A stretch of DNA of 64,000 nt from Candidatus Marinacidobacterales bacterium (GCA_965237955.1 OZ250169.1:1248001-1312000); one strand, 5' to 3'; positions 18,701 through 36,932 are shown, counted from the stretch's first letter. A program made the numbers and translations. Notes: a model not told the origin generated them from the letters alone.

Positions 18701-20523
18701 AAACGGAACATTTGTAGATCTTCAGCAACCAGCGCGTGTTTGACAAACGGTCCTCATTTTAGGGAGGATTACGCCTATCAAGGAGCACTTCTCCTATTAT
18801 GAGACCTACGAGCTATCAGTCTGAAGATCTCGACCGCCTGTTGAGGAAGCACAAAATAGCTACCCTCGATGATTTGAAGGCAGTGTTGGGTACCGATGTG
18901 GACTCGACCGTCTTCCGAAAGCTCAATGAGTTGGCGTATCGGACAAGCTACTCCCACCGTGGTAGCTACTACACGTTGGACGAGATCGCCCAGTTCGATC
19001 GAAAAGGTCTTTGGTCGTTGCGCTCAGTGTGGTTCTCGAAGTACGGGACGTTGCTTGCGACGGTAAAAGCGTTGGTCGCGGCCTGTGAGGCAGGCTACTA
19101 CGTCGACGAGCTCGAGGACGTGGTGCAGGTTGACGTCAAGGCTCCTCTGTTGAAACTGGTCCGAGAGAAAAGATTGGCGCGCGAGCAGGTGTTCGGCCGA
19201 TATCTGTATCTGGCCACCGATGTGAGCACGCGCAAGCAACAGCTCTCGGCCCGCCAGGTACATGAGGCGTCACCTTCCACGTTGGGCTGGGTCGGGGGAG
19301 TCCGCGTGCTCCCCGTGGAGTTGAAGGCTGCGATCGTTCTTTTCTACAGCCTGCTCGATGAAAAGCAGCGCCGTCTCTACGCGGGAGTCGAGGCCATGAA
19401 GCTCGGTCACGGTGGCGACCAACAGATTGCCGAACTGCTCGGGATGGATCCGAGCACGGTAGCCAGAGGTCGTAGGGAATTGCTAATGAGAGATGTTGAG
19501 CTCGACGGAGTTCGGCGAAAGGGTGGCGGACGGCGCGCCGTGCAAAAAAAACGCCAGAAGTCATCGCCAAGATCGAAGAACTCATGAAGCACGACACCGC
19601 GGGCGATCCGATGACGGGAGTGAAATGGACGCGGCGGACCACCGACAAGATTGCTTGCGAGCTAAGAAGCCTTGGTGTGAACGTCAGCAGCAAAACCGTC
19701 GGTCGACTGCTCAAACAGCTCGGCTTCTCGTTGCGGGTGAACCACAAGAAGCTGTGCGGTGCCACGTCCGAAGATCGCGATACCCAATTCGCGTGTATCG
19801 CCGAACTGCGCGAGCGTTTTGCCGCAGCTGGTCATCCCATCATCAGCGTAGACACGAAGAAACGGGAGCTGGTGGGATTATTCAAAAACGGCGGGCAGGC
19901 CTGGAACCGCGAGCCGACTCTCGTCAAAGACCATGACTTCCGTTCCGAATCGAACGGCATCGCAATCCCCTACGGCGTCTACGATCTGCTCGCGAACCGC
20001 GGGACAGTGTTCATTGGTACCTCGTACAACACCCCGGACTTCGCCGTGAATGCCATCGAGAAGTGGTGGCGAACGGAAGGACGGCGACGCTATCCTGCAG
20101 CCCGTGACCTCGCGATATTGGCAGACGCCGGGGGCAGCAATGGCTATCGGTGTCGGGGTTGGAAGCACGGGCTTCAAACGCGGATTTGCAATCGCCACGA
20201 CATCGCTATCACCATAGCCCACTATCCGTCCGGTACATCCAAGTGGAATCCAGTGGAGCACCGTCTGTTCAGCGAGATCAGCAAGAACTGGGCGGGCAGG
20301 CCTCTCGACAGCTACGAAACCATCCTCAAATACATCCGCACGACCACCACCTCTTCCGGTTTGCGAGTACGCGCACACCTTATCCGGCGTCGTTATCCGA
20401 AGGGCGTCAAAATCACTGACGAGCGGATGCAGGCGCTTTCCGTTACAAAGGACCAGACTCTACCCAAATGGAACTACACCATCCGACCGTCTTGAAAACG
20501 GGAACTTATTTTGTCGCCGGCCC
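18598..20523 (+). mobile_element. ISAzo13-family element
   Basis: TIR gggccgccgacaaaataa / ttattttgtcgccggccc; 3-bp TSD TAA (18595-18597, 20524-20526). Confidence 0.9.
18799..20495 (+). CDS. ISAzo13 transposase in two ORFs (18799-19587, 19584-20495), probably joined by a -1 frameshift
   Basis: A8 slippery run at 19544-19551; motifs LDEKQRRLYAG, GDPM, ISVDTKKRE, DAGGSNG, SKWNPVEHRLFS. Confidence 0.88.
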
Positions 20524-20986: not shown

Positions 20987-21067
20987 CCCTTAGGGTCCTT
21001 ACACCCGCCCGCTGAATCCGGTACCATGGATTCATCCGCATTTCGCCGGATGTTGATTTGCTGTCCA

Positions 21068-21877
21068 ATGCCCTATACCGGACGTCTCGAGGCGACTCCC
21101 CTTCTGGACATCGTGCAGATCATCGCGTACTCGCAGCAAAGCGGTCTTCTCTCCGTCAAAGGGAGCAACACCAAAGGGCTTCTGATTTTTCAGGCTGGGA
21201 ACATTATCTGCGCCTACTCGCCTACCGCATTGCCGCTCCTCGTCAAAGCCGCCAAAGAACAAAATCCTGACAATCGCCTCTCGCTCAGACGCATCCAGGT
21301 GCTCGCCGCTCTCCGAGAGCTATTCGACGTCGGCGAAGGCGACTATCGTTTCGTCAAGAAAGCCGAGCCCATCACCGAGCTCGAGGGGCTCGATATGAGG
21401 TTGTTCTACGCGAGCGGCCCACTGGACACCGGCGATCTCCTGCTCGTCCTCGAGAACGCGATGGACGAGCAGCCGCAGGATATCCAAGTCACCCGCGTTT
21501 CTCCGCCGGAATCGCGCGTGGCCACCGAAGGCCGTGTGCATCCTCGCTACGGGCCGATCGTCGTCCAAGCCACCCTCGAGTTCGCCGGCACCACCGTCGT
21601 CGGTTATTTGACTAATCTGAGCGAGGGCGGTACTTTCTTCCACGCGGACGAGTTTCCTGGACCCGATAGCGAGTGTGAGCTCGGTTTCGAGCTTCCATGG
21701 GAGCTAGGGTACTGTCAGGCGAAAACCAAAGTGGCCTGGCTCCGCTCCGAGGGGCCCGACACCCGACGAGGCGTCGGGCTGACTTTCCTCGAGGTCTCCC
21801 CCGACAGCAAGGGAAGAATCGCCGCCTATTTGGAGCGATTCCAGGAGCTCGCCGCAGATGTGGATTTCGAGGCCTAG
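21068..21877 (+). CDS. DUF4388 plus PilZ domain protein
   Basis: N-terminal GRLEATPLLDIVQII...SGLL; C-terminal RVHPR and NLSEGG PilZ motifs, GVGLTF. Confidence 0.85.
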   Translation: MPYTGRLEATPLLDIVQIIAYSQQSGLLSVKGSNTKGLLIFQAGNIICAYSPTALPLLVKAAKEQNPDNRLSLRRIQVLAALRELFDVGEGDYRFVKKAEPITELEGLDMRLFYASGPLDTGDLLLVLENAMDEQPQDIQVTRVSPPESRVATEGRVHPRYGPIVVQATLEFAGTTVVGYLTNLSEGGTFFHADEFPGPDSECELGFELPWELGYCQAKTKVAWLRSEGPDTRRGVGLTFLEVSPDSKGRIAAYLERFQELAADVDFEA

Positions 21878-21977: not shown

Positions 21978-23693
21978 ATGTCAGCGCATTTGATCGAGCC
22001 GCATGGTGGAGCCCTGACGAACCTCGTCGTCGAGCCGGAGCGGCAGACCGAGCTCAAGGCGAACTCGACCGACTGGCCGTCCTGGGACCTCACCCCACGC
22101 CAACTCTGTGACCTCGAGCTCGTGCTGAACGGCGGGTTCTCGCCACTCACGGGTTTCCTCGGCCGCTCGGACTACGAGTCCGTGTGCTCGGACATGCGTC
22201 TCGAGAGTGGGCTCCTGTGGCCGATACCGATCACCCTCGACGTGACCGAAGAACGTGCCAAAGAGCTGGACTCCGACGCCAAGCTAGCGCTTCGCGATCC
22301 GGAGGGCGTCATGCTCGCTGTCCTTCACGTCGATGACGTGTGGCAGCCCGATCGCGAGGCGGAAGTCGAGGCCGTGTTCGGCACGACCAATCCAGAGCAT
22401 CCCGGAGTCGGATACACGTTGAACCAGGCTCATCCTTACTACGTCGGCGGACGGCTCGAGGGAGTGCAGCTACCGATCCACCATGACTTTCGTGCGCTCC
22501 GCTTCGCCCCCAAGAGGCTTCGCGAAGAGTTCGGCCGGCTCGGGTGGCGGAAGATCGTCGCGTTTCAAACGCGCAACCCCATGCACCGCGCTCATCACGA
22601 GCTGACGCTGCGTGCCGCGAAGAAAGTCGAAGCGAATCTTCTGATTCACCCTGTCGTCGGCATGACCAAACCCGGCGACCTCGATCACTACACACGAGTG
22701 CGTTGTTACCAAGCCATCGCGTCCCACTACCCGCGGAACACCGCGCGTCTGTCGCTCCTGCCGCTCGCGATGCGCATGGGAGGGCCGCGCGAAGCGGTGT
22801 GGCACGCGATCATCCGCAAGAACTACGGTTGCACCCACCTCATAATAGGGCGCGACCACGCCGGCCCGGGAAGCGATTCGAGCGGCAAACCGTTCTACGG
22901 TCCGTACGACGCTCAGGAGCTCTTGCAGAAACACGAAAAAGAGAGCGGCGTGGCGATGGTGCCGTTCAAGATGATGGTGTATCTCGAAGACAAAGATACC
23001 TACATGCCGCAGGACGAAGTCGAGGAAGGCACCCGCGTGCTAAGCATTTCAGGGACGGAGCTCCGTGAACGCCTCGCGGGCGGCAAAGATCTTCCCGAGT
23101 GGTTCACGTTTCCCGCCGTCGCCCAAGAGCTCAGAAAAACGCATCCGCCGCGAGAACGTCAGGGCTTCACCGTGTTCTTCACCGGCCTATCGGGTTCCGG
23201 CAAATCGACGATCGCCAACGTGCTCCTCGTCAAGCTTCTCGAAATGGGCGGCCGTCCGGTGACGATCCTCGACGGCGACCTCGTGCGCAAGAACTTGTCG
23301 TCGGAGCTCGGTTTCTCCAAAGAGCACCGCGACATCAATATCCGCCGTATCGGCTACGTGGCGTCGGAGATCACCAAAAACGGCGGCATCGCCGTGTGTG
23401 CGCCGATCGCGCCGTACGCCTCCGTGCGCAAGGAAGTCGAGGCGATGATTGCCCCCCTCGGCGGCTACATCCTGGTCCACGTCGCGACTCCCCTCGAAGT
23501 TTGTGAGAAACGCGATCGCAAGGGGATGTACGCCAAAGCACGCGCGGGAATCATCAAAGAGTTCACCGGCATCTCCGATCCTTACGAGGAGCCCGAGAAC
23601 GCGGCGTTGACGATCGACACGACCGACAAGAGCCCGGAGGAAGCCGCGCAGGAGATCATCCTCCACCTCGAAAGCCTCGGGTTCATCGGGTGA
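21978..23693 (+). CDS. sat: Bifunctional sulfate adenylyltransferase / adenylyl-sulfate kinase (PAPS synthase)
   Basis: FQTRNPMHRAH and GRDHAG (ATP sulfurylase); FTGLSGSGKST, LDGD, FTGISDPYE (APS kinase); AGGAG SD. Confidence 0.97.
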   Translation: MSAHLIEPHGGALTNLVVEPERQTELKANSTDWPSWDLTPRQLCDLELVLNGGFSPLTGFLGRSDYESVCSDMRLESGLLWPIPITLDVTEERAKELDSDAKLALRDPEGVMLAVLHVDDVWQPDREAEVEAVFGTTNPEHPGVGYTLNQAHPYYVGGRLEGVQLPIHHDFRALRFAPKRLREEFGRLGWRKIVAFQTRNPMHRAHHELTLRAAKKVEANLLIHPVVGMTKPGDLDHYTRVRCYQAIASHYPRNTARLSLLPLAMRMGGPREAVWHAIIRKNYGCTHLIIGRDHAGPGSDSSGKPFYGPYDAQELLQKHEKESGVAMVPFKMMVYLEDKDTYMPQDEVEEGTRVLSISGTELRERLAGGKDLPEWFTFPAVAQELRKTHPPRERQGFTVFFTGLSGSGKSTIANVLLVKLLEMGGRPVTILDGDLVRKNLSSELGFSKEHRDINIRRIGYVASEITKNGGIAVCAPIAPYASVRKEVEAMIAPLGGYILVHVATPLEVCEKRDRKGMYAKARAGIIKEFTGISDPYEEPENAALTIDTTDKSPEEAAQEIILHLESLGFIG

Positions 23694-24490
23694 GCGATCC
23701 GATCCTCGCGCGCATCGCAGAAGCGCTTCGAGCATCCGCGGAGATCTTCCGGGACTACGAGCCGGGAAAAGTCGAGGCGAAGGAAAAGGCCGGTGGCGAC
23801 CCCGTCACCGAAGCGGACAACGCCGTCAACGAGGTGCTCCACAAGCTGTTGCCCCGCGACGGCGAGGGCTGGCTTTCCGAAGAGACGACGGATGATCTTC
23901 GTCGTCTCGAGGCGCGTCGCGTTTGGGTCGTCGACCCGCTCGACGGCACCAAGGAGTTCGTTTTGGGCATTCCGGAATGGTGCGTCTCGATCGGCTACGT
24001 CGAGGACGGCGTCCCGACGGCGGGTGGTATCTTCAACCCGCAGAGTGGCGAGACGATCCTCGGCGGACGCGGCGAAGGGGTTCTCTACAACGGCGAAGCG
24101 GCAACGATGAGCCAGCGCGACCGTCTCGAAGGAGCCGTCGTTCTCGGAAGCCGTAGCGAGTCCAAGCGCGGCGAATGGGATCTCTTCGACGACGCGCCCT
24201 TCACCGTACGCCCCATGGGCTCGGTGGCGTACAAGCTCGGCCTCGTCGCCGCCGGCAAGGCGGACGCTACCTGGACGGTCATTCCCAAGAACGAATGGGA
24301 CGTCGCAGCCGGCGTCGCCCTCGTGCTCGCGGGCGCAGGCGTTGCCTACGAGCCCGATGGAACACCGCGCACGTTCAACAGCCGCGATCCACTTCTGAGC
24401 GGTCTCGTCGCCCACCCGACGGCGCTGGCCACGGACGTCAAACCCGTGGTCGAACGCCACCGACTCTCCCAGGCAGCGCGGGCGCGCTAG
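23690..24490 (+). CDS. cysQ: 3'(2'),5'-bisphosphate nucleotidase (inositol monophosphatase family)
   Basis: PVTEAD, LSEE, WVVDPLDGTKEF, EWDVAAG; translationally coupled to sat. Confidence 0.9.
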   Translation: MSDPILARIAEALRASAEIFRDYEPGKVEAKEKAGGDPVTEADNAVNEVLHKLLPRDGEGWLSEETTDDLRRLEARRVWVVDPLDGTKEFVLGIPEWCVSIGYVEDGVPTAGGIFNPQSGETILGGRGEGVLYNGEAATMSQRDRLEGAVVLGSRSESKRGEWDLFDDAPFTVRPMGSVAYKLGLVAAGKADATWTVIPKNEWDVAAGVALVLAGAGVAYEPDGTPRTFNSRDPLLSGLVAHPTALATDVKPVVERHRLSQAARAR

Positions 24491-24744
24491 CGAAGCTTCA
24501 GCAGTGCAATCACTCACCAGTGCCACGTCGACGTCGCTGGAGCGATCATGGTCTCGCCTTTCCTTTCATTGATGAGCGTTTCGTAACCACGGCCGCTCGA
24601 GCGCATTTTGAAATAATCCCCAACCGCATTGTCCAGCACGTAATTGACCCTGGTCTTTCTTCAGGAACATCGTTCGACAGAGTCTTATCTTGGGGTGGTA
24701 CAAGTTCTTAATGGAGAATTATCGTGTTATGATATTATCGTATC

Positions 24745-25035
24745 GTGATACAAGACTTCGGCAATCGACTGGCGGAGGATCTCTATGACGACAAAAATAC
24801 AAAGGCGGTCAGGCGAATTCCGAAAGAGTTACACCGAAGAGCTCGACGCAAGCTGTTGTATTTACATGAAGCGGCAGAGCTCCAAGATTTGCGCGAACCA
24901 CCCGGTAACAGGTTGGAAGCCTTCAAGGGTGATTGGAAGGGCTTTCATTCCATTCGCAGTAATGATCAGTGGCGAATCGTTTTCCGGTGGCAAAGTAGCA
25001 ACGCTTATGATGTGCATGTCATCGATTATCACTGA
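24745..25035 (+). CDS. higB: HigB-type RelE/ParE toxin
   Basis: LREPPGNRLE...HSIRSNDQWRIVFRW...IIDYH signature. Confidence 0.9.
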   Translation: MIQDFGNRLAEDLYDDKNTKAVRRIPKELHRRARRKLLYLHEAAELQDLREPPGNRLEAFKGDWKGFHSIRSNDQWRIVFRWQSSNAYDVHVIDYH

Positions 25036-25054
25036 TGACGGGGGTTATTTTTAT

Positions 25055-26770
25055 GCCTCTCCTGCCATTTCAGTGGATCCTCTCGAGGGTGAGACCGCCA
25101 CAGTTTAGGTAGACGAGACTGATGAGAGCTTCGGCAGAGTGGAGTCCAAAGCTGCGGTGGCTCAGCAGCCTGATTTTGTTGTTCATTCCTTCGAGTCGGC
25201 CGTTGCTGAGTCTCCACGTGACCCACGCGATGACGCCATCGAAGTGGCTGCTCATCTTCGCCGCGCGTTTGACGGGCTCTATCCTCGAGCTCATAGCGCG
25301 CCGCAGCCATCCTCGGAGAAACTTCTTGGCCCATGTCTCGGTTTTGTAGGTGTAGAGGTCCATGAAGTCGTCGCGCAGAAGCATGGCGCGGTAGAGGCGA
25401 CGATTAGCTCGCACCTGCTCGCGGAGCACCCGTTTGTCTTTCGCGCTGCGGTTGTGTTTGGCCTTGAGAAGGGGAAACTTGGTGTTCTTGAGGTTGCGCC
25501 GGGCAGTCCCTTTGAGCTCGCGCACCAGCTCGCGCCGGGTCTTATCCACGGCCTCGTTCAGATGCTTGACGATGTGGAAGCGGTCAAAGATCACCCGTGC
25601 CTGAGGAGCCTTTTTGCCGACGACAGTTATGTACGGCTCCCACATGTCCATGCTGACCGCTTCGAGCTCCGCGGCTCTTTGTGGTCCGAGCTTGCGGAAA
25701 AACCGCAGCAGCGTCTTGGCCTTGCGCTCCTTTCCCGCCCAGACGACCCGGCCGCTGAGATGGTCTATTACCACTGTTAAGTACTTGTGGCGTTTGCGGT
25801 AGCTGATCTCGTCCATCCCAATCACCCGCAATCCATCGAGCTCGCGCCGCTCATCCCGCTGCTCGGCAACCACTCGCTGGATGATCCGTCGCACCGAACG
25901 CCACGTCACTCGGAAATAGTTCGCTACGGCGCTGACGTCCGTCCTCTGTGCCAGCCACGCTACCTCTTGTTCGAAGCTTTTGGTAAAGCGGCTTCCCTTG
26001 TCTGCCCAAGGCACCTTTTCTCTGACCACTCCACACCGCCGACATACCACTCGTCGGATCGAGTAGCGAAGATAGGTCCGGACTCCGAACAGGTCCAAGT
26101 GCCGCCAGTAGCGATTGTAGCGATCTTTGTTCTTGCGGACCTTTCGTCCGCAAATCCCGCACAGAGGCTTCCTCCTCCGTGGTACTACATCCACCACCAC
26201 TCTGGCTTTGTCCGCCTGGAAGTAGAAACCTCGGACCCACAGGCCTTGCAATCCGATGAGCTTGTTGACTAACGTAGTAACGCGCATCGCGGGAACGCTC
26301 TTTTCTCTTTCGGAAAAAAAGATTCTAGCGTTCTCGCCGATGCGCATCTACACATGGCTTACCCTCTCAACCCACGGGCCTCACCAAATGCCACTGCCCC
26401 TCAGCGAGAGACGAGGCTGTGGGAAACGCCCCCACGGTTCTGGTCGTTCAGACCTTGCTCACGACTGAGTTCTCTTCGAAGCCTGGAAGGGCGTTTTCCA
26501 TAGCCTCCACTAATCGAGCCCCCCCTTCCTTATTCCATATGAATTAATCTTTCTTGTATATATATCAGGAGGGGCCTGTGGGCGCTCGTGGGAAACGCGA
26601 AGCGTTTTCCAAGCGATTGTGGAAAACGCCGCTCCACGTTTGTACGTGCTCACAACCTTTCCCTAAACGCCTCTCTCGCCCGGAGTTTCCGGCGTTTTCC
26701 ACAATCGCGGCAGCGTCCATAGGCCATGCCCTCCAACACAAATCAGATCCCCCGAAACGACAGGAGAACC
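25055..26770 (-). mobile_element. ISL3-family element inserted between higB and higA
   Basis: 8-bp TSD ATTTTTAT (25047-25054, 26771-26778); TIR gcctctcctgccatttc / gaaacgacaggagaacc. Confidence 0.93.
25070..26287 (-). CDS. ISL3 transposase
   Basis: Zn finger (CGICG...CRRCG), GMDEISYRK, SMDMW, FDRFH, SNGRLEGMNNKI. Confidence 0.93.
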   Translation of the reverse strand: MRVTTLVNKLIGLQGLWVRGFYFQADKARVVVDVVPRRRKPLCGICGRKVRKNKDRYNRYWRHLDLFGVRTYLRYSIRRVVCRRCGVVREKVPWADKGSRFTKSFEQEVAWLAQRTDVSAVANYFRVTWRSVRRIIQRVVAEQRDERRELDGLRVIGMDEISYRKRHKYLTVVIDHLSGRVVWAGKERKAKTLLRFFRKLGPQRAAELEAVSMDMWEPYITVVGKKAPQARVIFDRFHIVKHLNEAVDKTRRELVRELKGTARRNLKNTKFPLLKAKHNRSAKDKRVLREQVRANRRLYRAMLLRDDFMDLYTYKTETWAKKFLRGWLRRAMSSRIEPVKRAAKMSSHFDGVIAWVTWRLSNGRLEGMNNKIRLLSHRSFGLHSAEALISLVYLNCGGLTLERIH

Positions 26771-26776
26771 ATTTTT

Positions 26777-27046
26777 ATGAGGCAGCCAACTAATCCGTTT
26801 CATCCTGGGGAAATTCTCGCTGAGGAGTTTTTGAATCCGGCAGGAATCACGCAAACTGCTTTTGCGGAGAAGATAGGCTGGACGCGGGCCCGTCTCAACG
26901 AGCTCATCAACGGGAAGCGCGGAATAACGGCTGACGCAGCGTTGGACCTCGCTGAAGCGTTGGGCACCACCGCCAAATTATGGATGAATCTTCAGACCAC
27001 CTATGACCTAAATCGCGCTAAGAAACGAAGAGAGCAGGTCGCTTGA
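26777..27046 (+). CDS. higA: HigA-family antitoxin
   Basis: HPGEILAEEFL...ELINGKRGITAD.ALDL...WMNLQ..YDL. Confidence 0.93.
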   Translation: MRQPTNPFHPGEILAEEFLNPAGITQTAFAEKIGWTRARLNELINGKRGITADAALDLAEALGTTAKLWMNLQTTYDLNRAKKRREQVA

Positions 27047-27121
27047 TACTATCCTGAACTCCCACCGGATTTTGCAATCTGTTCTCCGGGACTTGCGATC
27101 CTATGAGGTCCCGTTTGCGTC

Positions 27122-27202
27122 GAGGTGCCGATCGACTTCATCGAGCTTCTGAGCATCTACCACTTGTTCGGCGATCCCGCGCTCACCCTTCGTCCCAACT
27201 AG
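27122..27202 (+). pseudogene. C-terminal remnant of a C25 (gingipain-like) peptidase gene
   Basis: IELLSIYHLFGDPALTLRPN* matches the typical C25 end motif (LxGDP). Confidence 0.5.
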
Positions 27203-27819
27203 CCGCGGTTGCGGTAGAGCTTTTCGTCGACGGCCCCGGCCATCTTCTCGGGGGCGAGTGGAAGGCCCAAGAACTCCTTGATGCGACGGGCCTGCTCGAG
27301 CGGATTGGCCACAGCATCCTTATACGGAATCTCGAGAGACTCCAGGTGGTCGGCGTGTTTCAGGAGGTAGTTGACCTTCCACAAGTGGTCTTTCCAGAGC
27401 TCGAGCATTTTCTCGTCCTCGATCTCATTGGCCTCCCCCCGACGATCGAGCATTTTTTGCTGGGACGCGAGCACCTCCGGTAGGTCTCGCCGCATGAAGA
27501 TGACCTTGTAGTTGTTCGTCTCCGGAAGGTCCTTGAGAAGAAAGGAGATGATCTTGACCGCCTTGCCGCGCGCCTCGCGAAGCCAGCCACGGTCTTTGCC
27601 ATCCTTATCGGCCTTGTGGAGATCCTTGACCCGCTCGTCCTCGAAATAACCCTTGGGGTTGTCCTCGCCGGCTTTGCGCACGCCGTCGGTGATGGCGCTG
27701 ACACCTGCGGCCGCCAGCATTTGCATTGCCATCGAGGTACCCGAGCGCGGAAGCCCCGAGACCACGATCACGGGCTCTCCGTAGCGGATCCTTCGATAGA
27801 GGCGATAAAGTCTCTTCAT
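27199..27819 (-). CDS. PAPS-dependent sulfotransferase family protein
   Basis: 5'-PSB loop VSGLPRSGTS; NPKGYFE; 3'-PB-like IFMRRDLPEVLASQ. Confidence 0.88.
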   Translation of the reverse strand: MKRLYRLYRRIRYGEPVIVVSGLPRSGTSMAMQMLAAAGVSAITDGVRKAGEDNPKGYFEDERVKDLHKADKDGKDRGWLREARGKAVKIISFLLKDLPETNNYKVIFMRRDLPEVLASQQKMLDRRGEANEIEDEKMLELWKDHLWKVNYLLKHADHLESLEIPYKDAVANPLEQARRIKEFLGLPLAPEKMAGAVDEKLYRNRG

Positions 27820-27870
27820 CCCAACAGAGCATGCTACACTATCCCGTCCTCCCCTTTTGAGATAGACTAA

Positions 27871-29982
27871 TTGGTTCTGTTTCGTCTCGTCGTTTTGGTA
27901 GTGGGTCTGGTGCTCCTCGTGGCCCCACAACCGGCCGAAGCCTACATCGGCCCCGGCGCCGGCTTCGCGCTACTGTCGTCGTTTCTGATCGTATTCACCA
28001 CGATCCTGATCGCGATGGCGTCGCTCCTCATCTGGCCCTTGCGGATGGCGTGGCGCTTTTTCGGGAGGAAGACGCAAGCGAAGCCCCTGGTCAAGAGGCT
28101 CATCATCGTCGGCTTCGACGGCCAGGACCCGAAGCTGACCGAGAAGTTCATGAAGCAAGGGATTCTGCCCAATATGGAGAAGCTCGCTAAAGCGGGCTGC
28201 TACACGAAGCTGGGGACGACTTACCCGGCCATCTCTCCGGTCGCGTGGTCGTCGTTCGCAACCGGCACGAACCCCGCACGGCACAACATCTTCGACTTCC
28301 TCGATCGGGATCGCCGAACCTATCTTCCGCTTCTATCGTCGACGCACATCGGTAGCGTCGAACGCTTTCTCAAGATCGGCCCCTACCGGATTCCTTTGAA
28401 CAAGCCGGAGGTGAGGCTCCTTCGGAAATCGACACCGTTCTGGTCGATCCTCGGCGAGCACAACATCTGGAGCACGGTGCTTCGCGTGCCCATAACCTTC
28501 CCACCGGACAAGTTCTATGGCGCTCAGCTCTCCGCGATGTGCGTCCCCGATCTCCTTGGCACGCAGGGCACGTTCCTTCTGTACACGACGCGACCCGCGG
28601 AGCAGAAGTTCAAAGAAGGCGGCCTCAGGTTCCAGCTCGAGAAAAACGGCGACCGGATGGAGACCACTCTCCAGGGTCCCGAGAATATGTTTCGTGACGG
28701 CAATCCTCCTCTCGAGGTCCCGGTTGTCATCGACGTGGACCGCTCGTCCGGAAAGACTCGCGTGAGCGTCGATGGCGAGACGATGGAGCTCGAACCGATG
28801 AAGCTATCGGATTGGATTCCGATATCGTTCAAGGCCGCGCCTACCATCAAAGTCTCCGGCATCTGCCGCATGATGGTGACGGAAATGGACGATCACTTCT
28901 CCCTGTATGTCACGCCGATCAACATCGATCCCGACAAGCCGGCGATGCCGATCTCGCATCCTTCTTATTACGCAACCTACCTGTCGAAGAAGGTAGGACA
29001 TTTTTGCACGCTCGGCTTGGCGGAAGACACGTGGGCGCTCAACGAAGGGGTCACCGACGACGGCACGTTCCTGCAGCAGACCTACGACATCGACCGCGAG
29101 CGCCAGGACATGTTCTTCACGTCACTCGATCATCTGCGACGAGGGTCTCTCGTCTGTGTCTTCGACGCCACCGATCGCATCCAGCACATGTTCTGGCATT
29201 ACCTCGAAAAGGATCATCCGGCCAATCACGGAAACGGAATCGAAGATGCCGAGCACAAAGACGCCATCGAAGCCATCTACAAACACAACGACGTCCTCGT
29301 CGGCAAAGTCATGGACAAACTGAGAGACGGCGACGTGCTCATGGTGCTCTCCGACCACGGGTTCAATTCCTTCCAGCGCGGCGTCAACTTGAACCGGTGG
29401 CTGCAACAAGAAGGCTTGCTCGTGTTGAAGGACGGGGCGAGCGGCGAAGAGGAATGGCTCCAGGGTGTGGACTGGTCAAAAACCAGAGCCTACTCGCTCG
29501 GACTGACCGGCATGTTCCTCAACATGAAGGGTCGCGAGGCCCAAGGCATCGTCGAGCCCGGCAAGGAAGAAAAAGACGTCAAGGAAGAGATCATCGCCAA
29601 GCTGAGTGGCCTGAAAGACGAAGAGCGCGGCGCCGTCGGCATCAAAGAGGTCTTCGACACCAAGAAGATCTACGACGGTCCCTATTCGGAGAACGCACCC
29701 GACCTCATTATTGGGTACGACAACGGCTATCGAATCTCGTGGGATTGCGCCACCGGCATGGTCGCAGGAGCGGTGTTCGAAGACAACGTCAAAGCGTGGA
29801 GCGGAGATCACTGTGTGGATCCCAGGCTCGTACCCGGTGTCTTGTTCTCGAACTACCCCGTCGATTCCGAAGACCCGACCCTGCTCGACGTCGCGCCGAG
29901 CGCGTTGAAAATGTTCGGGCTCACGCCACCCAAGTACATGGAAGGCTCGTCGCTCTTCACCGAGGCGACGTTTCTAAAATGA
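27871..29982 (+). CDS. Alkaline phosphatase superfamily (type I phosphodiesterase-like) protein with signal peptide, YIGPG motif and TM helix
   Basis: IIVGFDG, PAISPVAWSSFATG, DRIQH, LSDHGF, WSGDH; N-terminal AEA|YIGPGAGF then a hydrophobic helix and basic patch. Confidence 0.88.
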   Translation: MVLFRLVVLVVGLVLLVAPQPAEAYIGPGAGFALLSSFLIVFTTILIAMASLLIWPLRMAWRFFGRKTQAKPLVKRLIIVGFDGQDPKLTEKFMKQGILPNMEKLAKAGCYTKLGTTYPAISPVAWSSFATGTNPARHNIFDFLDRDRRTYLPLLSSTHIGSVERFLKIGPYRIPLNKPEVRLLRKSTPFWSILGEHNIWSTVLRVPITFPPDKFYGAQLSAMCVPDLLGTQGTFLLYTTRPAEQKFKEGGLRFQLEKNGDRMETTLQGPENMFRDGNPPLEVPVVIDVDRSSGKTRVSVDGETMELEPMKLSDWIPISFKAAPTIKVSGICRMMVTEMDDHFSLYVTPINIDPDKPAMPISHPSYYATYLSKKVGHFCTLGLAEDTWALNEGVTDDGTFLQQTYDIDRERQDMFFTSLDHLRRGSLVCVFDATDRIQHMFWHYLEKDHPANHGNGIEDAEHKDAIEAIYKHNDVLVGKVMDKLRDGDVLMVLSDHGFNSFQRGVNLNRWLQQEGLLVLKDGASGEEEWLQGVDWSKTRAYSLGLTGMFLNMKGREAQGIVEPGKEEKDVKEEIIAKLSGLKDEERGAVGIKEVFDTKKIYDGPYSENAPDLIIGYDNGYRISWDCATGMVAGAVFEDNVKAWSGDHCVDPRLVPGVLFSNYPVDSEDPTLLDVAPSALKMFGLTPPKYMEGSSLFTEATFLK

Positions 29983-31952
29983 TGCGAGCTCTCGGTCTTG
30001 TCACGATCGCACTGATGGCGTCGACGTCGAGTGTCGGCTGTGGCACCGGCGACGACGCCAAGGCCTCCGGACCGCGCGTCATCGTCCTCGGGCTCGATGG
30101 CATGGACTACGCTCTCACCAAGAAGCTCATGGACGAAGGGCGCATGCCCAACTTCTCGAAAGTCGCGCAACAGGGCAGCTTCGCCCCTCTCGAGACCTCG
30201 GTGCCCCCTCAAAGCCCGGTAGCATGGTCGAACTTTATTACTGGCCTGGATTCCGGCGGCCACGGTATCTACGACTTCGTTCACCGCGATCCCGATACGA
30301 TGATCCCGTACCTCTCGACGAGCCGCACGAGCGGAGGCGGCAGGACGCTCGAGATCGGCAAGTATCAGTTCCCTCTCTCCGGAGGCTCGATCGAGCTTCT
30401 ACGAAAGGGCCGTGCCTTTTGGGAGGTCCTCGAGGCCCAGGGCATCCAGACCACGATCCTGCGCATGCCCGCGAACTTTCCGCCGTCCGGAACGGCCACC
30501 TACGAGCTCTCCGGTATGGGAACCCCTGACATCACCGGGACCTACGGCGAGTTCTCTTTCTACACGTCGAAGCTCTTCGCGTTCGTGGGACAAGACATCG
30601 CGAGCGGCGAGGTTTACGAAGTGGACATCTTCGACGGTGTCGTCGACGCCAGATTGTACGGCCCGGACAACCCGTTCCTGAAGGAGGCGGAGAAGCTCAC
30701 GTCGGAGTTCACCGTGTACCTCGATCCGGTGGACCCCATCGTCAAGCTGGTGGCAGGGACCGAGGAAGTAATCCTCAAAGAAGGCGAGTTCAGCGACTGG
30801 GTGCCGGTCGAGTTCCCGATGATCCCAACCCAGGCGCTCGCCGGCGTGGTTCGCTTTTATCTGCGCTCGGTACGCCCCGACTTCGAGCTCTATGCATCAC
30901 CGGTGAACTACGACCCACTCGACCCAGCACTTCCGATCTCGACCCCAGACGACTACGCTCGCGAGCTCGCTCGAGCGACCGGACGCTTCTACACGCAAGG
31001 CATGCCCGAGGACACCAAAGCCTTGGAGGGAGGTGTTCTCCATCCAGACGAGTTCCTGGCGCAGGCCGAGATCGCGGGCCAAGAGATCCTCGACCAATAC
31101 GAGTACGTGCTCGATCAGTTCAAAGGCGGCTTCCTCTTCTACTACACGGGGAACATCGATCAAATCAGCCACATGATGTGGAGGACGCTCGACCCCGAGC
31201 ACCCAGGCTACGACCCCGACGTCGACCCTCAGTACGCCGGGCTCATCGAAAGCCTCTACGTCGGCCTAGACGATGTCGTCGGTTACACGCTCGAGCGCAT
31301 GGGCGACGACACGACGTTGATCATCATGTCGGACCACGGTTTCACCTCGTGGAAGCGATCGTTTCACTTGAACGCGTGGCTGAAAGAGCACGGCTACCTC
31401 ACCGTCAAGAATCCCGACATGAAAAACGATCCCGGCATGTTCGTAAACGTCGACTGGGCGCACACCCAAGCGTACGCACTCGGAATGAACGGACTCTACT
31501 TGAACATGCGGGGGCGCGAGAAGAACGGGATCGTCACCGAGGGCCAGCGGGACGATCTCATGGAAAAGATCGCGCAGGACCTGCTCGCCGAGATCGATCT
31601 GGTCACCGAAATGCCCGCGGTGACGAAAGTCTACAAGCGCGAAGAGATTTTCAAAGACCGAGGCCACCTCGATATCGGCCCCGACATTATCGTCGGCTAC
31701 GCGAAAGGAACCCGGGGCTCGGGTCAATCGGCACTGGGTGCAGTAGGAAGCGAGCTCATCACCGATAACACCGGCGCCTGGAGCGGCGATCACACCATGG
31801 ACCACGAGGCCGTTCCTGGAATCCTGCTGACGAGCCGCGCTCTCAAAAAGCCGGCACCGAGGCTGCTGGATTTGGCGGCGGCCATTCTCGCCGAGTTCGG
31901 CATCGACACACCGATCAACCCAAGCGTCGACTTGGGACCTACGGACGACTGA
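29979..31952 (+). CDS. Alkaline phosphatase superfamily lipoprotein (paralog of the upstream gene)
   Basis: Lipobox SVG|C; VLGLDG, PPQSPVAWSNFITG, DQISH, MSDHGF, WSGDH; ATGA overlap with the upstream gene. Confidence 0.88.
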   Translation: MMRALGLVTIALMASTSSVGCGTGDDAKASGPRVIVLGLDGMDYALTKKLMDEGRMPNFSKVAQQGSFAPLETSVPPQSPVAWSNFITGLDSGGHGIYDFVHRDPDTMIPYLSTSRTSGGGRTLEIGKYQFPLSGGSIELLRKGRAFWEVLEAQGIQTTILRMPANFPPSGTATYELSGMGTPDITGTYGEFSFYTSKLFAFVGQDIASGEVYEVDIFDGVVDARLYGPDNPFLKEAEKLTSEFTVYLDPVDPIVKLVAGTEEVILKEGEFSDWVPVEFPMIPTQALAGVVRFYLRSVRPDFELYASPVNYDPLDPALPISTPDDYARELARATGRFYTQGMPEDTKALEGGVLHPDEFLAQAEIAGQEILDQYEYVLDQFKGGFLFYYTGNIDQISHMMWRTLDPEHPGYDPDVDPQYAGLIESLYVGLDDVVGYTLERMGDDTTLIIMSDHGFTSWKRSFHLNAWLKEHGYLTVKNPDMKNDPGMFVNVDWAHTQAYALGMNGLYLNMRGREKNGIVTEGQRDDLMEKIAQDLLAEIDLVTEMPAVTKVYKREEIFKDRGHLDIGPDIIVGYAKGTRGSGQSALGAVGSELITDNTGAWSGDHTMDHEAVPGILLTSRALKKPAPRLLDLAAAILAEFGIDTPINPSVDLGPTDD

Positions 31953-31961
31953 AGGGTCATT

Positions 31962-32153
31962 ATGTTTGGTTCGAAAATCAAGCTCGACAAAGAGCTCATC
32001 GCACGCGTGAAGAAGGTCTCCGACATCGCAGGCTACTCCAGTCCCGAAGAGTTCATCACCCACGCGCTCGAAAAAGAGCTCGCCAAGCTCGAGGATGCCG
32101 GCTCCGAGGAAGAGATCAAGAAACGATTGAAAGGTCTGGGCTACATCTCGTAG
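31962..32153 (+). CDS. Small ribbon-helix-helix (CopG-like) protein with C-terminal EEEIKKRLKGLGY motif
   Basis: Strand-helix-helix pattern (KIKL / DKELIARVKKVSDIAG / SPEEFITHALEKEL); tight operon spacing. Confidence 0.75.
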   Translation: MFGSKIKLDKELIARVKKVSDIAGYSSPEEFITHALEKELAKLEDAGSEEEIKKRLKGLGYIS

Positions 32154-32168
32154 CCGGCTCGCCGCCGC

Positions 32169-32999
32169 ATGTCGTTCATCAACGCACTCCTGCGCACGCT
32201 AATAGACGGGCTCCTCTACCCGTTCCGCGACCTTTCACCGATCGTCGGCCTGACCGTGGTGTCGCTTCTGACCGCGATTGGCCTTCTGATCGTCTTCAAG
32301 CACACGTCGAACCAAAAGGCGCTCAAGGACGTGAAGCGGAAGATCCACGCCGGGCTCTTCGAGATCCGTCTCTACAACGACGACTTCCGGTTGATGGTGA
32401 GGGCCCAGTCCGGGATCCTACGCGCGAACCTGACCTACATGCGCTACTCGATGGCACCGATGATTTGGACCCTCCCACCGCTCATCCTTCTCATCGCGCA
32501 GCTTCAGTTCCACTACGGCTACAGCGGCCTTACGCCCGGCCAGGAAGTGCTGCTCAAAATCGAGTTTTCGGAAGGAGCCTACGGCGGCGACGAAAAGCCT
32601 CCCTACGCGGTGACGACCCCGGAGGGCTTACAGCTCGACGACCTTGCGGTATGGATCCCAACCCTCGGCGAGATGGCGTGGCGCCTCACCGCGGACGCGC
32701 CGGGCGACTACGAGCTCGAGATTCGAAACGGCACTGGGAGCGCCACCGCCACCAAGACGGTGAGGGTCACCGATAGCGTCGTCCGGCGCTCACCGTTCAA
32801 AGTCCGCGGCTTTCTGAATGAGCTCATCTACCCAGCCGAGGCGTCACTCCCGAGCGACGGAGCCATCGAGTCGATTACGGTGACCTACCCCGACGCAAAC
32901 GTGGACGTCTTCGTCGAGCTCCATTGGATGATTGTCTACTTCGTGTTGTCGATCGTATTCGCCTTCATCCTCCGCGGCCCGCTCGGTGTCACGCTGTAG
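32169..32999 (+). CDS. Membrane protein resembling the Oxa1 superfamily (DUF106/EMC3/TMCO1)
   Basis: Amphipathic N-helix, TM1, charged helical hairpin, TM2 with PM...PP, soluble beta insert, final TM with W..YF..S. Confidence 0.6.
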   Translation: MSFINALLRTLIDGLLYPFRDLSPIVGLTVVSLLTAIGLLIVFKHTSNQKALKDVKRKIHAGLFEIRLYNDDFRLMVRAQSGILRANLTYMRYSMAPMIWTLPPLILLIAQLQFHYGYSGLTPGQEVLLKIEFSEGAYGGDEKPPYAVTTPEGLQLDDLAVWIPTLGEMAWRLTADAPGDYELEIRNGTGSATATKTVRVTDSVVRRSPFKVRGFLNELIYPAEASLPSDGAIESITVTYPDANVDVFVELHWMIVYFVLSIVFAFILRGPLGVTL

Positions 33000-33096: not shown

Positions 33097-35140
33097 ATGG
33101 GACTTGCTACGCATGGAGGTATGGACGGAGATCTGCGTGCGTGGGCGAGAGGATCGATTCTCGCGTCTGCGCTCATGGCGCTAGGAGCACCAGCGTCCGC
33201 GCAAGTCGCTACCGGCACGTACGACGGCAATGGTAGTGCCGGCCGGTCCATCACTGTAGGGTTCCGCCCCAACTTCGTGTTCATCAAAGTAGACTACGAG
33301 AACATCGCCGATAATGACTTGTCGTCCGGCGTCATCCGGACAGCCATGATGACGGGCGACAACGCCAAACCGTTGACGGGCATTCAGGCCCTGATGTCCG
33401 GGCTCATCACCTCGCTCGATGTGAACGGGTTCACCGTCGGAAACGACCTGCGGGTCAACGCCGCCGGTGCAAGCTGCGGGGGCACGTGCACCTACTATTG
33501 GACCGTGTTCGGCGCCGATCCCGATTTCGCCATGGGCAGCTACACCGGCAACGGCACCAGCGTCGGCGACCCACAGTCCATCACCGGGCTCGGCTTTTCA
33601 CCGGAATACGTCATGGTGCTGCCCGCCACGACGAGACGAGCCGGCCACCGCACCACCGCTGGCGGCACCTTCAGCCGGCGCATGAGCCCGAATGGAAGCG
33701 CGCTCACGGACGCGATCACGTCCATGGATGCCGACGGCTTTACGGTGACGGTGAGCTCGAGCGCCGGTGACAACCCGAACGAGAACAGCCAGACCTACTA
33801 TTACGCCGCGTGGAACGCTGCACCGGGGAAGATGGTCATCGGCGAATATCTCGGCAACGGCGTCAACAACCGGCAGATCATCGGTACGAGCTTCTCCCCG
33901 AGTTGGTTGATCCTCTCCGCGTACGACGACGGGAAAGACCCGATTCACCGCACGAAAGACATGCCGACAGATGCAGGAAGCAGCTTCCGAAAGGATGTAC
34001 AGACCGGATACGTGCGCGCGCTCTTGCCGAACGGGTTCCAGATTGGCAGCAACAACGTCGTCAACGAAGCCGGCTTCAACTTCTTCTGGGTCGCGTTCGG
34101 CAACCAAGCAGCATGTCCCCCCATGACCGTTTCAGAATCAGGCGGCACGATTACGACCACCGCGGCTGGCAGCTTCGAGCTTCGGTTCAACTCGTCCGTC
34201 GGCGGCAGTATCGACCAGTGGTACGAGTTGAATCGCGATCCAGATCGGTCGACCAACTTGATGAACAACACGGGCGCGAACAACGAGTACGCTTTGAACG
34301 ATTTCGCGCTCTACAACGCGCCGACGACCTATCAGCTCAATGCGGAGACTGCTGCCGCACTCGAGCTTTTGGAGGTCACGCCGCTTCGCACTTTGGTGCG
34401 CGCCGAAGGCGAGCTTGGTAACGTCGCCGGTTTCGACTACCGCCAAAAGACCACCGCCTACAGCTCGGGGAAACTCTACAACCGGATGCAGTTCACGAAC
34501 AACACCGGTGGGCCACTTTCGACGTATCAAGTGAACTGGTACGCCGGCGCTGACTACTCCGTAAACTGGTTGGGGTTGACGGATCCCGAGGGAACGCTCA
34601 GCGACGCGACCGAGCCGAACGCGTACACCGACGATTACGCGCTCAAGTACGCCAACGCCGCCTCGCCCGGTGACGAGCATTTCGGAAACATCCTCTTCAT
34701 TCCGTCACGAGACTACAGCGAGTTCTCCGAAACCGGTTGGGAATGGAAGAACGACTCAGGTGACGACGGCGGCTACATCAAGCTCATGGGAACCGAAACG
34801 TTTGGCGTCGGCGGCGGTATCATCGTCACGCACAACACGGTCTTGAAATCCGACGCTATCGAGTCGATTGCCGAGGCTCGACCGTTCGCCGACGACTACC
34901 GTTTGCCCGACGTTCTCAACGTGACGACGGGAAGCGAGTGGTTCCACGCGTCCGAGAGTACGTCGTCGCCATCCGATTCTTTCAACGAAGCCGAAGGTGC
35001 CTACACGCTCGACTTCGATCCCACCAATGGCCTCGTGTTCGATATCGACGGTGGGACGACGGAACGCCGGCTTCCTGTCTATAAGATTCGCCAATGGCGG
35101 TCTCTCGGCGGCGCGAGCTCGGTGAGCTTCACCGGGACGC
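33097..35140 (+). pseudogene. Large secreted repeat protein truncated by IS5
   Basis: Signal peptide (PASA|Q); three GxYxGNG...GF/SFxP repeats; the reading frame runs into the IS terminal repeat at about 35137. Confidence 0.75.
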
Positions 35141-36231
35141 TGCCTTGGTGCACAACTCCGATAGAGGCCGATAGCTCGCTTGGCCCCGACTCCCATCATC
35201 CGATCATCTCGCTATCAGGCATCCCGAGCGCCGTCATGGTGTTGAGAATCTTGCACCCGATCCTTGCCTCGACTCTCTGTGCCGCCAACCCTCTCGCTCG
35301 CATCGCTGAGCCCACGATAGCCTTGTAGCGATGGAACGTTGTCTCGACTTTGCTCCGTTTGCTGTAGCCCGATTCTGTGTGCCACTTTCGTTTGCCGAGC
35401 CGAGCTTGTGCTGCAATGTTGCGATTGCGCTGTCGGCTGCTCGCCGGCCCCGATGCGAGCTGGGCGCCCTTGCGCGGCGGTATCAGCACCCTCGGCGAGC
35501 AATGAGCGCTGTGATTCTCGATTGCCTCATAGACGCCGCCGGCGTCGTATGCGGTGTCAGCTCTGGCCGATGAGATGGGACTGTCGATCTGTCCGACAAG
35601 CGATGCAACCCGCGATGAATCGCGGGCTCTTTTGCTCGTCAGCTCGCCGGCGACGACTTCGCCACTCTGCTCGTCGACACACAGATGGAGCTTGCGATAG
35701 TCCCTGCTCTTTGGTGCTCTGCGCAGCTGGCCGGCGTGGACAGCGAGACCGCTGCTGTCGATCAAGATGTGCAACGGCGTCTTCTGCTTGTCTTGGTAGA
35801 AGGGGACCTTACCCAGCTTCGCCTTGCGCCTCGAGATCGTGGTGTGATCGGGCACATCATTGTCTAGCTTCATCAGAGCGAACAACGATCGCATCAATCC
35901 CTCGCTCTGCCTAGATGACAGATGAAACACCATGCCCAGGGTGACAGCCGTCTCGATGGCGTGGTTCGAGTACTTGCGTTGACGGCCCGGTTTCCTCCTC
36001 CTCGGCCGGGGCGCGTCCCAGTTCACAAGCTTGCCGGCGGTGAGCGAGATCCAGACGGTCAGGCTCCCACGGTTGCGTAGACCCGCCTCATATTCACGCC
36101 AATTCCTCACGCGATAGGCCTTCTTCACATACTTCCGCTGAGTGCGTTTGAAAATGCTCATGGGGAACCTCGAATCCGTGAGTAAAGGACAATTGTGGAC
36201 CGAGATCGCGAGTTGTGCACCAAGGCAGCGT
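35137..36231 (-). mobile_element. IS5-family (IS903 group) element without TSD
   Basis: Perfect inverted repeat acgctgccttggtgcacaactc / gagttgtgcaccaaggcagcgt (exact tips uncertain); flanked by pieces of two unrelated genes. Confidence 0.88.
35196..36161 (-). CDS. IS5/IS903-group transposase
   Basis: NWREYEAGLRNRGSLTVW, PDHTTISRR, IDSSG, RKLHL, ADTAYD, YSKRSKVET. Confidence 0.92.
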   Translation of the reverse strand: MSIFKRTQRKYVKKAYRVRNWREYEAGLRNRGSLTVWISLTAGKLVNWDAPRPRRRKPGRQRKYSNHAIETAVTLGMVFHLSSRQSEGLMRSLFALMKLDNDVPDHTTISRRKAKLGKVPFYQDKQKTPLHILIDSSGLAVHAGQLRRAPKSRDYRKLHLCVDEQSGEVVAGELTSKRARDSSRVASLVGQIDSPISSARADTAYDAGGVYEAIENHSAHCSPRVLIPPRKGAQLASGPASSRQRNRNIAAQARLGKRKWHTESGYSKRSKVETTFHRYKAIVGSAMRARGLAAQRVEARIGCKILNTMTALGMPDSEMIG

Positions 36232-36932
36232 GCCTTCGGAACTTCGGGACGTGGTACGGCGCCTATCCCTACGGTCACGTTACCATCGTCGATCCCGCCT
36301 ATGGAAGTGGCGCCGGGGGGATGGAGTACCCGACGTTTTTCACCGCGGGCACACGCTTTTTCAACACAGTCGGAACGGGATCGCCCGAAAGCGTCACCGT
36401 GCACGAGTGCGGCCACCAGTTCTGGTACGGCATCGTGGGGAACAACGAGTTCGAGCACGCGTGGCTCGACGAAGGGTTCACCACGTTCTCCACCGCGCGC
36501 ACGATGGACGTGACCTATGGAAATCGAACCCTCTCGCGCCGGTACTTGAATCCGCGGGGCGCACGCCGCATGACCGGTTTTCTGCCGGTTCTGTTCGAAG
36601 GTATCGAGCGGGATCGCATCATCGGCGGCAACCGCCTCGATGGCTATCGCGCCGCCGCCACCGCGGACGCACAGTCGACACCGACGTTTCAGTACTACCC
36701 GGCCACCGGGAGCGCGCACAGCTACAACAAGACCGCGCTCTGGCTAACGACGCTCGAGCGCTACCTCGGATGTGCCACGCTTCAGGAGATCATGTCGACG
36801 TACTTCGAACGCTACAAGTTCCGACACCCTAGCCCGCAGGACTTCTTCGACGTCGCGAACGAGGTGAGCGGCCAGGATCTGACGTGGTTCTTCGACCAAG
36901 TGTATCGAAGCTCGAACGACTTCGACTACGCG

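Follow-up and report, generated by a model that had tools for sequence, protein, structure and literature searches.

The window analysed here is a stretch of 64,000 nucleotides from Candidatus Marinacidobacterales bacterium (GCA_965237955.1, OZ250169.1:1248001-1312000), whose genome is a single 8.13-Mb contig and whose closest related loci are found in Acidobacteriota. It holds a sat-cysC gene, a CysQ-like gene, a minus-strand sulfotransferase gene and four co-oriented genes, which code for two enzymes of the alkaline phosphatase (AP) superfamily (AP1 and AP2), a 63-residue protein and a 276-residue membrane protein. A preliminary description had interpreted this set as a system that passes sulfate across the membrane, and by family searches of the window proteins all the genes it named were located where it had placed them. 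Its overall interpretation is partly supported by the analysis below.

The Sat-CysC protein (21978..23693, plus strand) is a bifunctional ATP sulfurylase/adenosine 5'-phosphosulfate (APS) kinase, that is, a 3'-phosphoadenosine 5'-phosphosulfate (PAPS) synthase, with a match of 923.7 bits to NCBIfam NF004040, above the cut-off. The gene is single copy and codes for the only Sat or APS kinase found in the genome. The following gene (23690..24490, plus strand) codes for an inositol-monophosphatase-family enzyme (PF00459, E 1e-44), a likely phosphatase of 3'-phosphoadenosine 5'-phosphate (PAP). Its best NCBIfam match, TIGR01331, reached 106 bits against a cut-off of 228.8 bits, and because the score lies under the cut-off it is labelled only CysQ-like; thus, of the PAPS synthase and cysQ announced before, the first stands and the second is weakened. 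Family and context fit, and the enzyme likely works as CysQ in the removal of PAP. It was also said that no PAPS or sulfite reductase is nearby, which is true locally; a PAPS-reductase-family (CysH-like) gene is present at 3.99 Mb in the same genome. The idea of a dedicated PAPS synthase was rejected, since Sat-CysC is the only one found and the CysH-like gene exists elsewhere.

The sulfotransferase (27199..27819, minus strand), of 206 residues and with no membrane helix, is divergent from AP1 as described, its start being 51 bp from that gene. It shows an invariant SGLPRSGTS, corresponding to the 5'-phosphosulfate-binding loop, and R111 and S119 of the 3'-phosphate-binding motif, and these motifs together with a PF13469 match above the cut-off place it among the PAPS-dependent sulfotransferases, of which RaxST is a bacterial example. 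PAPS itself is made in the cytoplasm. The profile of the protein gave distant matches to SULT1 and TPST structures; only the PAPS loop matched TPST (E about 1e-3), and phenol SULTs scored better. It shares with both groups the 5'- and 3'-phosphate-binding motifs, whereas its length of about 200 residues and the absence of a close relative with a solved structure set it apart.

AP1 (27871..29982, plus strand) and AP2 (29979..31952, plus strand) both match PF01663 and their gene ends overlap. That they are paralogues with SPVAW was confirmed: they are 35% identical, aligned over 625 columns, and both carry this motif. The site of AP1 is formed by Ser122 at the nucleophile position (28234..28236, plus strand; Thr in one clade) and by D83, D435, H439, D495, H496, and H647, and that of AP2 by Ser79 and D40, D394, H398, D452, H453, and H605. 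All six two-metal ligands (D, D-x3-H, D-H, H) were invariant in 35 AP1 and 32 AP2 sequences, with Ser or Thr as nucleophile. By fold and ligands both enzymes belong to the NPP/PhnA branch; the AP1 model gave Foldseek E values of 1e-10 to 1ei6 and 7mw8, and it matched phosphonoacetate hydrolase (PhnA), NPP and PafA. In comparison with these enzymes (1ei6, 7mw8, 2gsn, 5tj3), AP1 and AP2 have the same fold, ligands and Ser/Thr nucleophile, but the identity is of 10-13%, the insertions are large, and the two are predicted to be paired on opposite faces of the membrane. TIGR02335 gave 18 and 12 bits for AP1 and AP2 versus a cut-off of 407. The formylglycine (S1) sulfatase motif C/S-x-P-x-R is replaced in both by S/T-P-V-A-W.

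The N-terminus of AP1 carries a signal peptide, AEA|YIGPG with Tyr25 as the first residue after the predicted cleavage, then a long hydrophobic helix and a basic patch. The YIGPGAG peptide with which mature AP1 is predicted to begin (27943..27963, plus strand) is a candidate outer tyrosine carrier. A signal-peptidase site directly before YxGPG was present in 69 of 72 AP1 rows, the 3 misses coming from two frameshifted contigs, and also in 36/36 AP1s from distant loci; Y, G, P, G, A, and G of the peptide were invariant in 35/35 aligned AP1s. In the same 35/35 the first Lys or Arg is located exactly 33 residues past the Tyr and is followed by 6-10 basic residues, and in the AlphaFold model one helix runs across mature residues 4-40. 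Considering the positive-inside rule, this pattern places the catalytic domain, by prediction, in the cytoplasm and the N-terminal Tyr outside.

AP2 is predicted to be an exported lipoprotein, with Cys21 after a modest h-region. The lipoprotein assignment made before holds in part: a Cys after a hydrophobic stretch was read by eye in 55/56 N-termini of close orthologues, but the SVGC found here is not a textbook lipobox and distant AP2s carry lipoprotein, Tat or Sec signals. Among 39 of these, sorted by script, the N-terminus was a strict twin-arginine one in 15, a lipobox one in 11 and signal-like in another way in 13. Looking for longer forms yielded 10 proteins, 8 of them AP1-AP2 fusions and 2 fusions of an AP2-like domain to an AP-LGY domain. 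A hydrophobic helix separates the domains in 8/8 of the AP1-AP2 fusions, mostly after basic residues (P0392 may be a frameshift artefact), and L049 likewise has one between its AP1 and AP2 domains; in P0399 and P0400 the exported AP2-like domain is fused to the AP domain with the LGY motif with no helix between. Location of the two catalytic domains on opposite membrane faces, which had been predicted, is therefore well supported by sequence, in which the topology signals are opposite.

The 63-residue protein (31962..32153, plus strand) is ribbon-helix-helix (RHH)-like and ends in LKGLGYIS, where Tyr61 (32142-32144) is a candidate inner tyrosine carrier. The C-terminal LxGLGY was invariant in 32 small proteins. 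The likeness to the NikR RHH was weak (E 0.08; PF01402 at 0.87 in the atlas). The LGY-like end of Sat-CysC (LESLGFIG) was taken as an ordinary last helix and was not counted.

The tail is found in other proteins of the genome as well. In total 26 open reading frames (ORFs) end in LxxLGY, and the 19 fetched were 17 proteins of AP/sulfatase fold, 1 broken gene and 1 methylase. Of the 50 Pfam Sulfatase matches, 33 were aligned at the nucleophile: the tail was present on 13/18 Thr-type rows versus 0/12 Cys-type (CxPxR) rows, with 3 unclassed. The exported-type LGY-tailed proteins have Thr at the nucleophile and lack the Arg of the formylglycine motif; there are 13 such exported-type proteins elsewhere in the genome with an AP core and a tail of their own, in contrast to AP1 and AP2, which have none. 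In the fetched loci a terminal LGY was absent from AP1 (0/88), AP2 (0/84), AP0 (0/12; a related enzyme, see below), and APb (0/4), 0/188 in total, the AP2 part of P0392 being the exception to the tail-less AP2s, while non-formylglycine neighbours carried LGY in 26/28 cases (20 terminal and 6 internal). It was also possible to see, in L162 (4912-7665), a single chain of 917 residues that joins an AP domain, an internal LGY, TPR repeats and the same sulfotransferase family.

The last gene (32169..32999, plus strand) codes for a DUF106/Oxa1-superfamily protein with three membrane helices, a coiled coil after the first, and an inserted immunoglobulin (Ig)-like domain. Pfam EMC3_TMCO1 matched only at E 0.093, and an alignment profile matched archaeal MJ0480 at E 1.6e-11. 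The model (pLDDT 94.7) aligned with 7tut_8, which we take to be the TMCO1 chain of the eukaryotic multipass translocon, with Z 12.8 and a root-mean-square deviation of 3.8 over 135 aligned residues, so the assignment as an Oxa1/DUF106-like protein made before is sustained. The matches to Get1, YidC and EMC3 (Z 7.4-7.7) were within background and were set aside, and Foldseek with the model returned Ig-like domains only. The protein shares with this superfamily (MJ0480 5c8j, 7tut_8, EMC3, Get1, YidC) the three-helix core and cytoplasmic coiled coil, and differs in being bacterial, in its Ig-like insert and in its place within an enzyme operon, additional to the canonical YidC that the genome also has.

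Co-occurrence of the genes in other genomes had been proposed as a check on the system. A search with AP1 gave 529 stretches encoding relatives, of which the best 78 loci were kept, some on cut contigs. In these 78 the sulfotransferase was present in 70, the small protein and the membrane protein in 65 each, AP2 in 57, sat/cysC in 29, and the CysQ-like gene in 17. We also surveyed an even sample of 301 Acidobacteriota genomes, taking as carriers the 88 with the DUF106 membrane gene, and fetched by this gene 40 of the other 87 carriers, mainly the most distant ones. Beside it were the small protein in 40/40, AP2 in 39/40, AP1 in 36/40, and the sulfotransferase in 18/40. The co-occurrence in the 78 loci is far beyond chance, as the check demanded. 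Fisher tests were computed and set aside because the genomes are kin; they are mostly metagenome-assembled genomes, and the tallies include one unpublished genome (G049), with no claim resting on it alone. In 16/78 loci the order is AP1, small protein and membrane protein without AP2. That AP2 is dispensable was rejected, since in 5/5 such genomes tested it was located elsewhere (3 intact, 2 in pieces); likewise AP1, when missing from the operon, was found elsewhere in 4/4 genomes tested. The membrane-protein family comprises 1,392 clusters at 50% identity (E up to 1e-30). Outside Acidobacteriota the cassette was confirmed only in a Gemmatimonadota sample (2/81; the full operon in L168), and a plasmid search gave no match for it.

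The connection with PAPS-based sulfation, a central claim of the preliminary description, was borne out. APS kinase was present in 82/88 carriers versus 103/213 other genomes and the sulfotransferase in 60/88 versus 13/213, and the recurrent neighbours of the cassette are sat/cysC, cysD, the CysQ-like gene and LGY-tailed sulfatase-fold genes. The sulfotransferase is often substituted by AP0, a cytoplasmic AP enzyme of 430 residues. After four weak AP0 matches were dropped, the 88 carriers were scored for genes at most 10 kb away from the membrane gene: the sulfotransferase was there in 35, AP0 in 23, both in 0, and neither in 30. The sulfotransferase was not found in 28/88 carriers, 22 of which have AP0, and it is replaceable rather than core, an initial assumption of the latter kind being rejected.

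Gene content, complete two-metal sites, opposite export signals, two invariant terminal tyrosines and a genetic tie to PAPS can all be read from the sequences, and it is very probable that the cassette handles sulfate in some way. We consider it somewhat probable that it constitutes a Tyr/Ser relay that carries sulfate outward and supplies exported LGY-tailed sulfotransferases. Sat-CysC would make PAPS and the CysQ-like enzyme would remove PAP; the sulfotransferase, or AP0 in other genomes, would then sulfate the small protein at Tyr61 of its LGY tail. The cytoplasmic domain of AP1 would take the sulfate on Ser122 and hand it to Tyr25, located in an N-terminal peptide of AP1. This peptide would be enabled to shuttle between the faces by the DUF106 protein, a member of a family that carries short ends of peptides across a thinned membrane. 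Finally, AP2 would take the sulfate on Ser79 and charge exported Thr-type sulfatase-fold proteins on their LGY tails, and these in turn would sulfate envelope glycans or proteins, as Agl30 and Agl31 do in archaea. We infer all five steps, the third (Ser122 to Tyr25) and the fourth (shuttling of the peptide) being the weakest. The likely recipients of sulfate are the LGY-tailed exported enzymes rather than a surface polymer directly.

The closest precedent, not cited in the preliminary description, is that of Agl30 (VNG1056C) and Agl31 (VNG1057C) of Halobacterium salinarum, AP-core proteins needed for N-glycan sulfation according to deletion and heterologous expression, for which the sections at hand name neither donor nor mechanism (PMC11980604). 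A second report places them on the cytoplasmic face (PMC12624080). The cloning primers of Table 1 of the first paper, translated by hand, give the C-termini HLEDLGYL and LEELGYT, and its sections at hand are silent on LGY (PMC11980604). As read from the primers, Agl30 and Agl31 have in common with our system an AP core acting in sulfation and an LxxLGY end, which is that of the small protein and also of the exported enzymes of Thr type; they differ in being sulfatase-like terminal enzymes of the cytoplasmic side, whereas AP1 and AP2 are NPP-like, tail-less, and predicted to straddle the membrane. Tyrosine shuttles have been documented in the Dlt and Pat systems (DltB/DltX/DltD, PatA/PatB) (PMC12148441). 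The proposed logic of these MBOAT-SGNH shuttles is similar, with a cytoplasmic donor, an invariant Tyr on a terminal peptide, an outer Ser enzyme and an envelope acceptor, but the cassette would pass on sulfate, has its peptide at an N-terminus, and has a relative of Oxa1 as its membrane part. No MBOAT, SGNH protein or FxYxxF motif was found among the locus genes, so the analogy is one of logic only. In the open-licence literature, supplements aside, no paper on the cassette was found, and the same literature gave none on how bacteria sulfate molecules outside the cytoplasm.

Several observations weigh against an outward sulfate relay. The fold matches of AP1 are phospho-hydrolases (PhnA, NPP, PafA), and sulfuryl transfer is a weak activity of two-zinc AP sites. 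Tyr25 lies a full membrane width from Ser122, so that transfer between them would need a large motion. As precedents Agl30 and Agl31 are limited, being sulfatase-like rather than NPP-like and with an undefined donor. In this genome the PAPS genes are not contiguous with the sulfotransferase, since higB, an ISL3 element and higA intervene. Moreover, Sat-CysC must also serve assimilation, because it is the only PAPS synthase found and there is the CysH-like gene at 3.99 Mb. Six carriers gave no APS kinase match; four of them are 55-81% complete, and the near-complete G234 and G250, searched for Sat as well, lack it too. In the 30/88 carriers with neither partner adjacent, neither was found anywhere in the assembly in 6. 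No glycosyltransferase or other acceptor-making gene was found conserved beside the cassette, and the counts overstate independence because the genomes are kin. Finally, with three candidates scored per genome, orthologues of one exported LGY enzyme (L134) were present in 16/88 carriers and also in 17/213 non-carriers, and 6 of those 33 genomes had no APS kinase match. Five of the 17 cassette-free ones were tested; 4 had an isolated AP2-like gene adjoining an M23 peptidase gene, and 0 had the small protein. Therefore, such LGY enzymes can exist without the cassette.

Other explanations of the cassette have to be weighed. The sulfate could cross on a lipid or small aryl carrier, loaded inside by AP1, scrambled by the DUF106 protein and unloaded by AP2, with Tyr25 serving only to dock. 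This would avoid the long reach from Ser122 to Tyr25, and LtaS and EptA use lipid donors; an EamA transporter gene also follows the cassette in 13 loci lacking an adjacent AP2. Lipid scrambling by Oxa1-family insertases has been shown (PMC11047089). Nevertheless, the invariant Tyr at the cleavage site and the fixed 33-residue spacing would be left unexplained, no conserved gene of carrier synthesis is nearby, and the EamA loci are one clade in which AP2 is kept elsewhere, so we regard such a carrier as unlikely, though the foremost of the alternatives. Also unlikely, and placed next to it, is that AP1 and AP2 are two-sided hydrolases, that is, NPP-type phosphodiesterases or phosphosulfatases for nucleotides (APS, PAPS, PAP), with the DUF106 protein only inserting AP1 and the small protein acting as a DNA-binding regulator or a structural lid. 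The fold and metal ligands of NPP/PhnA, the weak NikR match and the existence of lone AP2-like genes agree with it; it gives no account of the exchange between sulfotransferase and AP0, the AP-LGY-sulfotransferase fusion, the invariant outer Tyr or the partition of LGY, and the genome has a canonical YidC. As to the regulator, the upstream regions of AP1 in 76 loci showed no conserved operator-like repeat or palindrome.

Much less probable is a relay that runs inward, in which sulfate would be scavenged from outside sulfate esters onto PAP, regenerating PAPS. The many exported sulfatase-fold proteins of the genome, reflected in the 50 Pfam matches, would suit it, as would the few carriers and LGY-enzyme genomes without APS kinase, but carriers as a whole are enriched, not depleted, for this enzyme, a PAP-removing gene is upstream, and PAPS is the higher-energy donor. 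The least probable explanation, in our opinion, is that what the cassette delivers to the envelope is a phospho-group, such as phosphoethanolamine or phosphoglycerol, and that the sulfur genes are neighbours by history. EptA and LtaS, which are Ser/Thr two-metal AP enzymes, do so, and an exported LGY enzyme gave weak matches to EptA and LtaS models, all far below the cut-off; against this, no cytidylyltransferase or lipid gene is recurrent, while sulfur-activation genes recur in several arrangements.

If the outward relay is real, it would explain how bacteria could sulfate their surface though the donor is made inside, and would be the sulfate counterpart, made of unrelated parts, of the Dlt and Pat acyl shuttles. 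Agl30, Agl31 and other AP-fold sulfotransferases would gain the donor and mechanism that they now lack. Thr-type "sulfatases", a large class taken for degraders in genomes from the sea and from sediments, would be re-annotated, and a bacterial DUF106 protein would have a role other than membrane-protein insertion. A broader and more doubtful extension, offered tentatively, is that LxxLGY may be a general sulfate-carrying Tyr tag of bacteria and archaea. Thousands of LGY-ending "sulfatases" and "phosphodiesterases" would then be tag-charged sulfotransferases, the cassette their trans-membrane charger, and an Oxa1/YidC-family insertase would have acquired the new task of moving a tethered sulfotyrosine peptide from one face to the other and back.

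Some arrangements related to the system were also noted. In cassette-free loci L144-L148 (e.g., L147, 1647-11514) AP0 sits in a cluster that comprises two tail-less AP enzymes, an APS kinase with an LGY tail, a second RHH-LGY protein, a PHP phosphatase, cytoplasmic LGY-tailed AP/sulfatase-fold genes and a polysaccharide flippase; this cluster is probably an all-cytoplasmic version and a polysaccharide sulfation locus. Stand-alone APS kinases (L047, 4890-5492; L149-L153) bear an extra acidic linker and an LxxLGY tail. L095 (8884-9234) has a second small RHH gene, a tail-less paralogue adjoining the LGY protein, and in L108 (14662-14898) an RHH-LGY gene of another type lies between cysC and the sulfotransferase. 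The EamA gene comes after the membrane gene in L043 (4946-5908) and 12 others; in this clade AP1 has a Thr nucleophile and AP2 has been relocated. The lone exported AP2-like genes of L164-L167 adjoin the gene of an EnvC-like M23 peptidase; an S41-like protease is nearby, and these genomes are without the cassette.

As regards expression, no sigma-70 promoter was found for the cassette, and RNA-library contigs overlap parts of AP2 and the membrane gene, which cannot demonstrate transcription. The genes between the CysQ-like gene and the sulfotransferase are passengers outside the system: a HigB-like toxin of a toxin-antitoxin pair (24745..25035, plus strand; PF05015, E 7e-18), an ISL3 element (about 25050..26775, minus strand; transposase 25070-26347, NF033550 above cut-off) and a HigA-like antitoxin (26777..27046, plus strand; PF01381, E 1.5e-11). 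The ISL3 element has >50 near-full copies across the genome, and its insertion splits higB-higA (24745-27046) and may uncouple toxin from antitoxin. In the close relatives L001, L005 and L021 the insertion is absent and the PAPS genes and the sulfotransferase are contiguous. Upstream of sat-cysC there is a DUF4388-PilZ gene (21026-21877), kept in 11/78 loci, close relatives only. On the other side, positions 33097-35328 code for a protein of secreted type that contains three DUF7483 stretches, and after it comes a minus-strand transposase-like ORF; this region is not conserved next to the cassette. Insertion elements are abundant in the genome, and several of the LGY-tailed genes located elsewhere are broken into pieces; in the window, transposase-like ORFs of varied kinds were read from translations at 9968-11080, 18799-20495, 35196-38169, 46497-47312, and 49005-50294.

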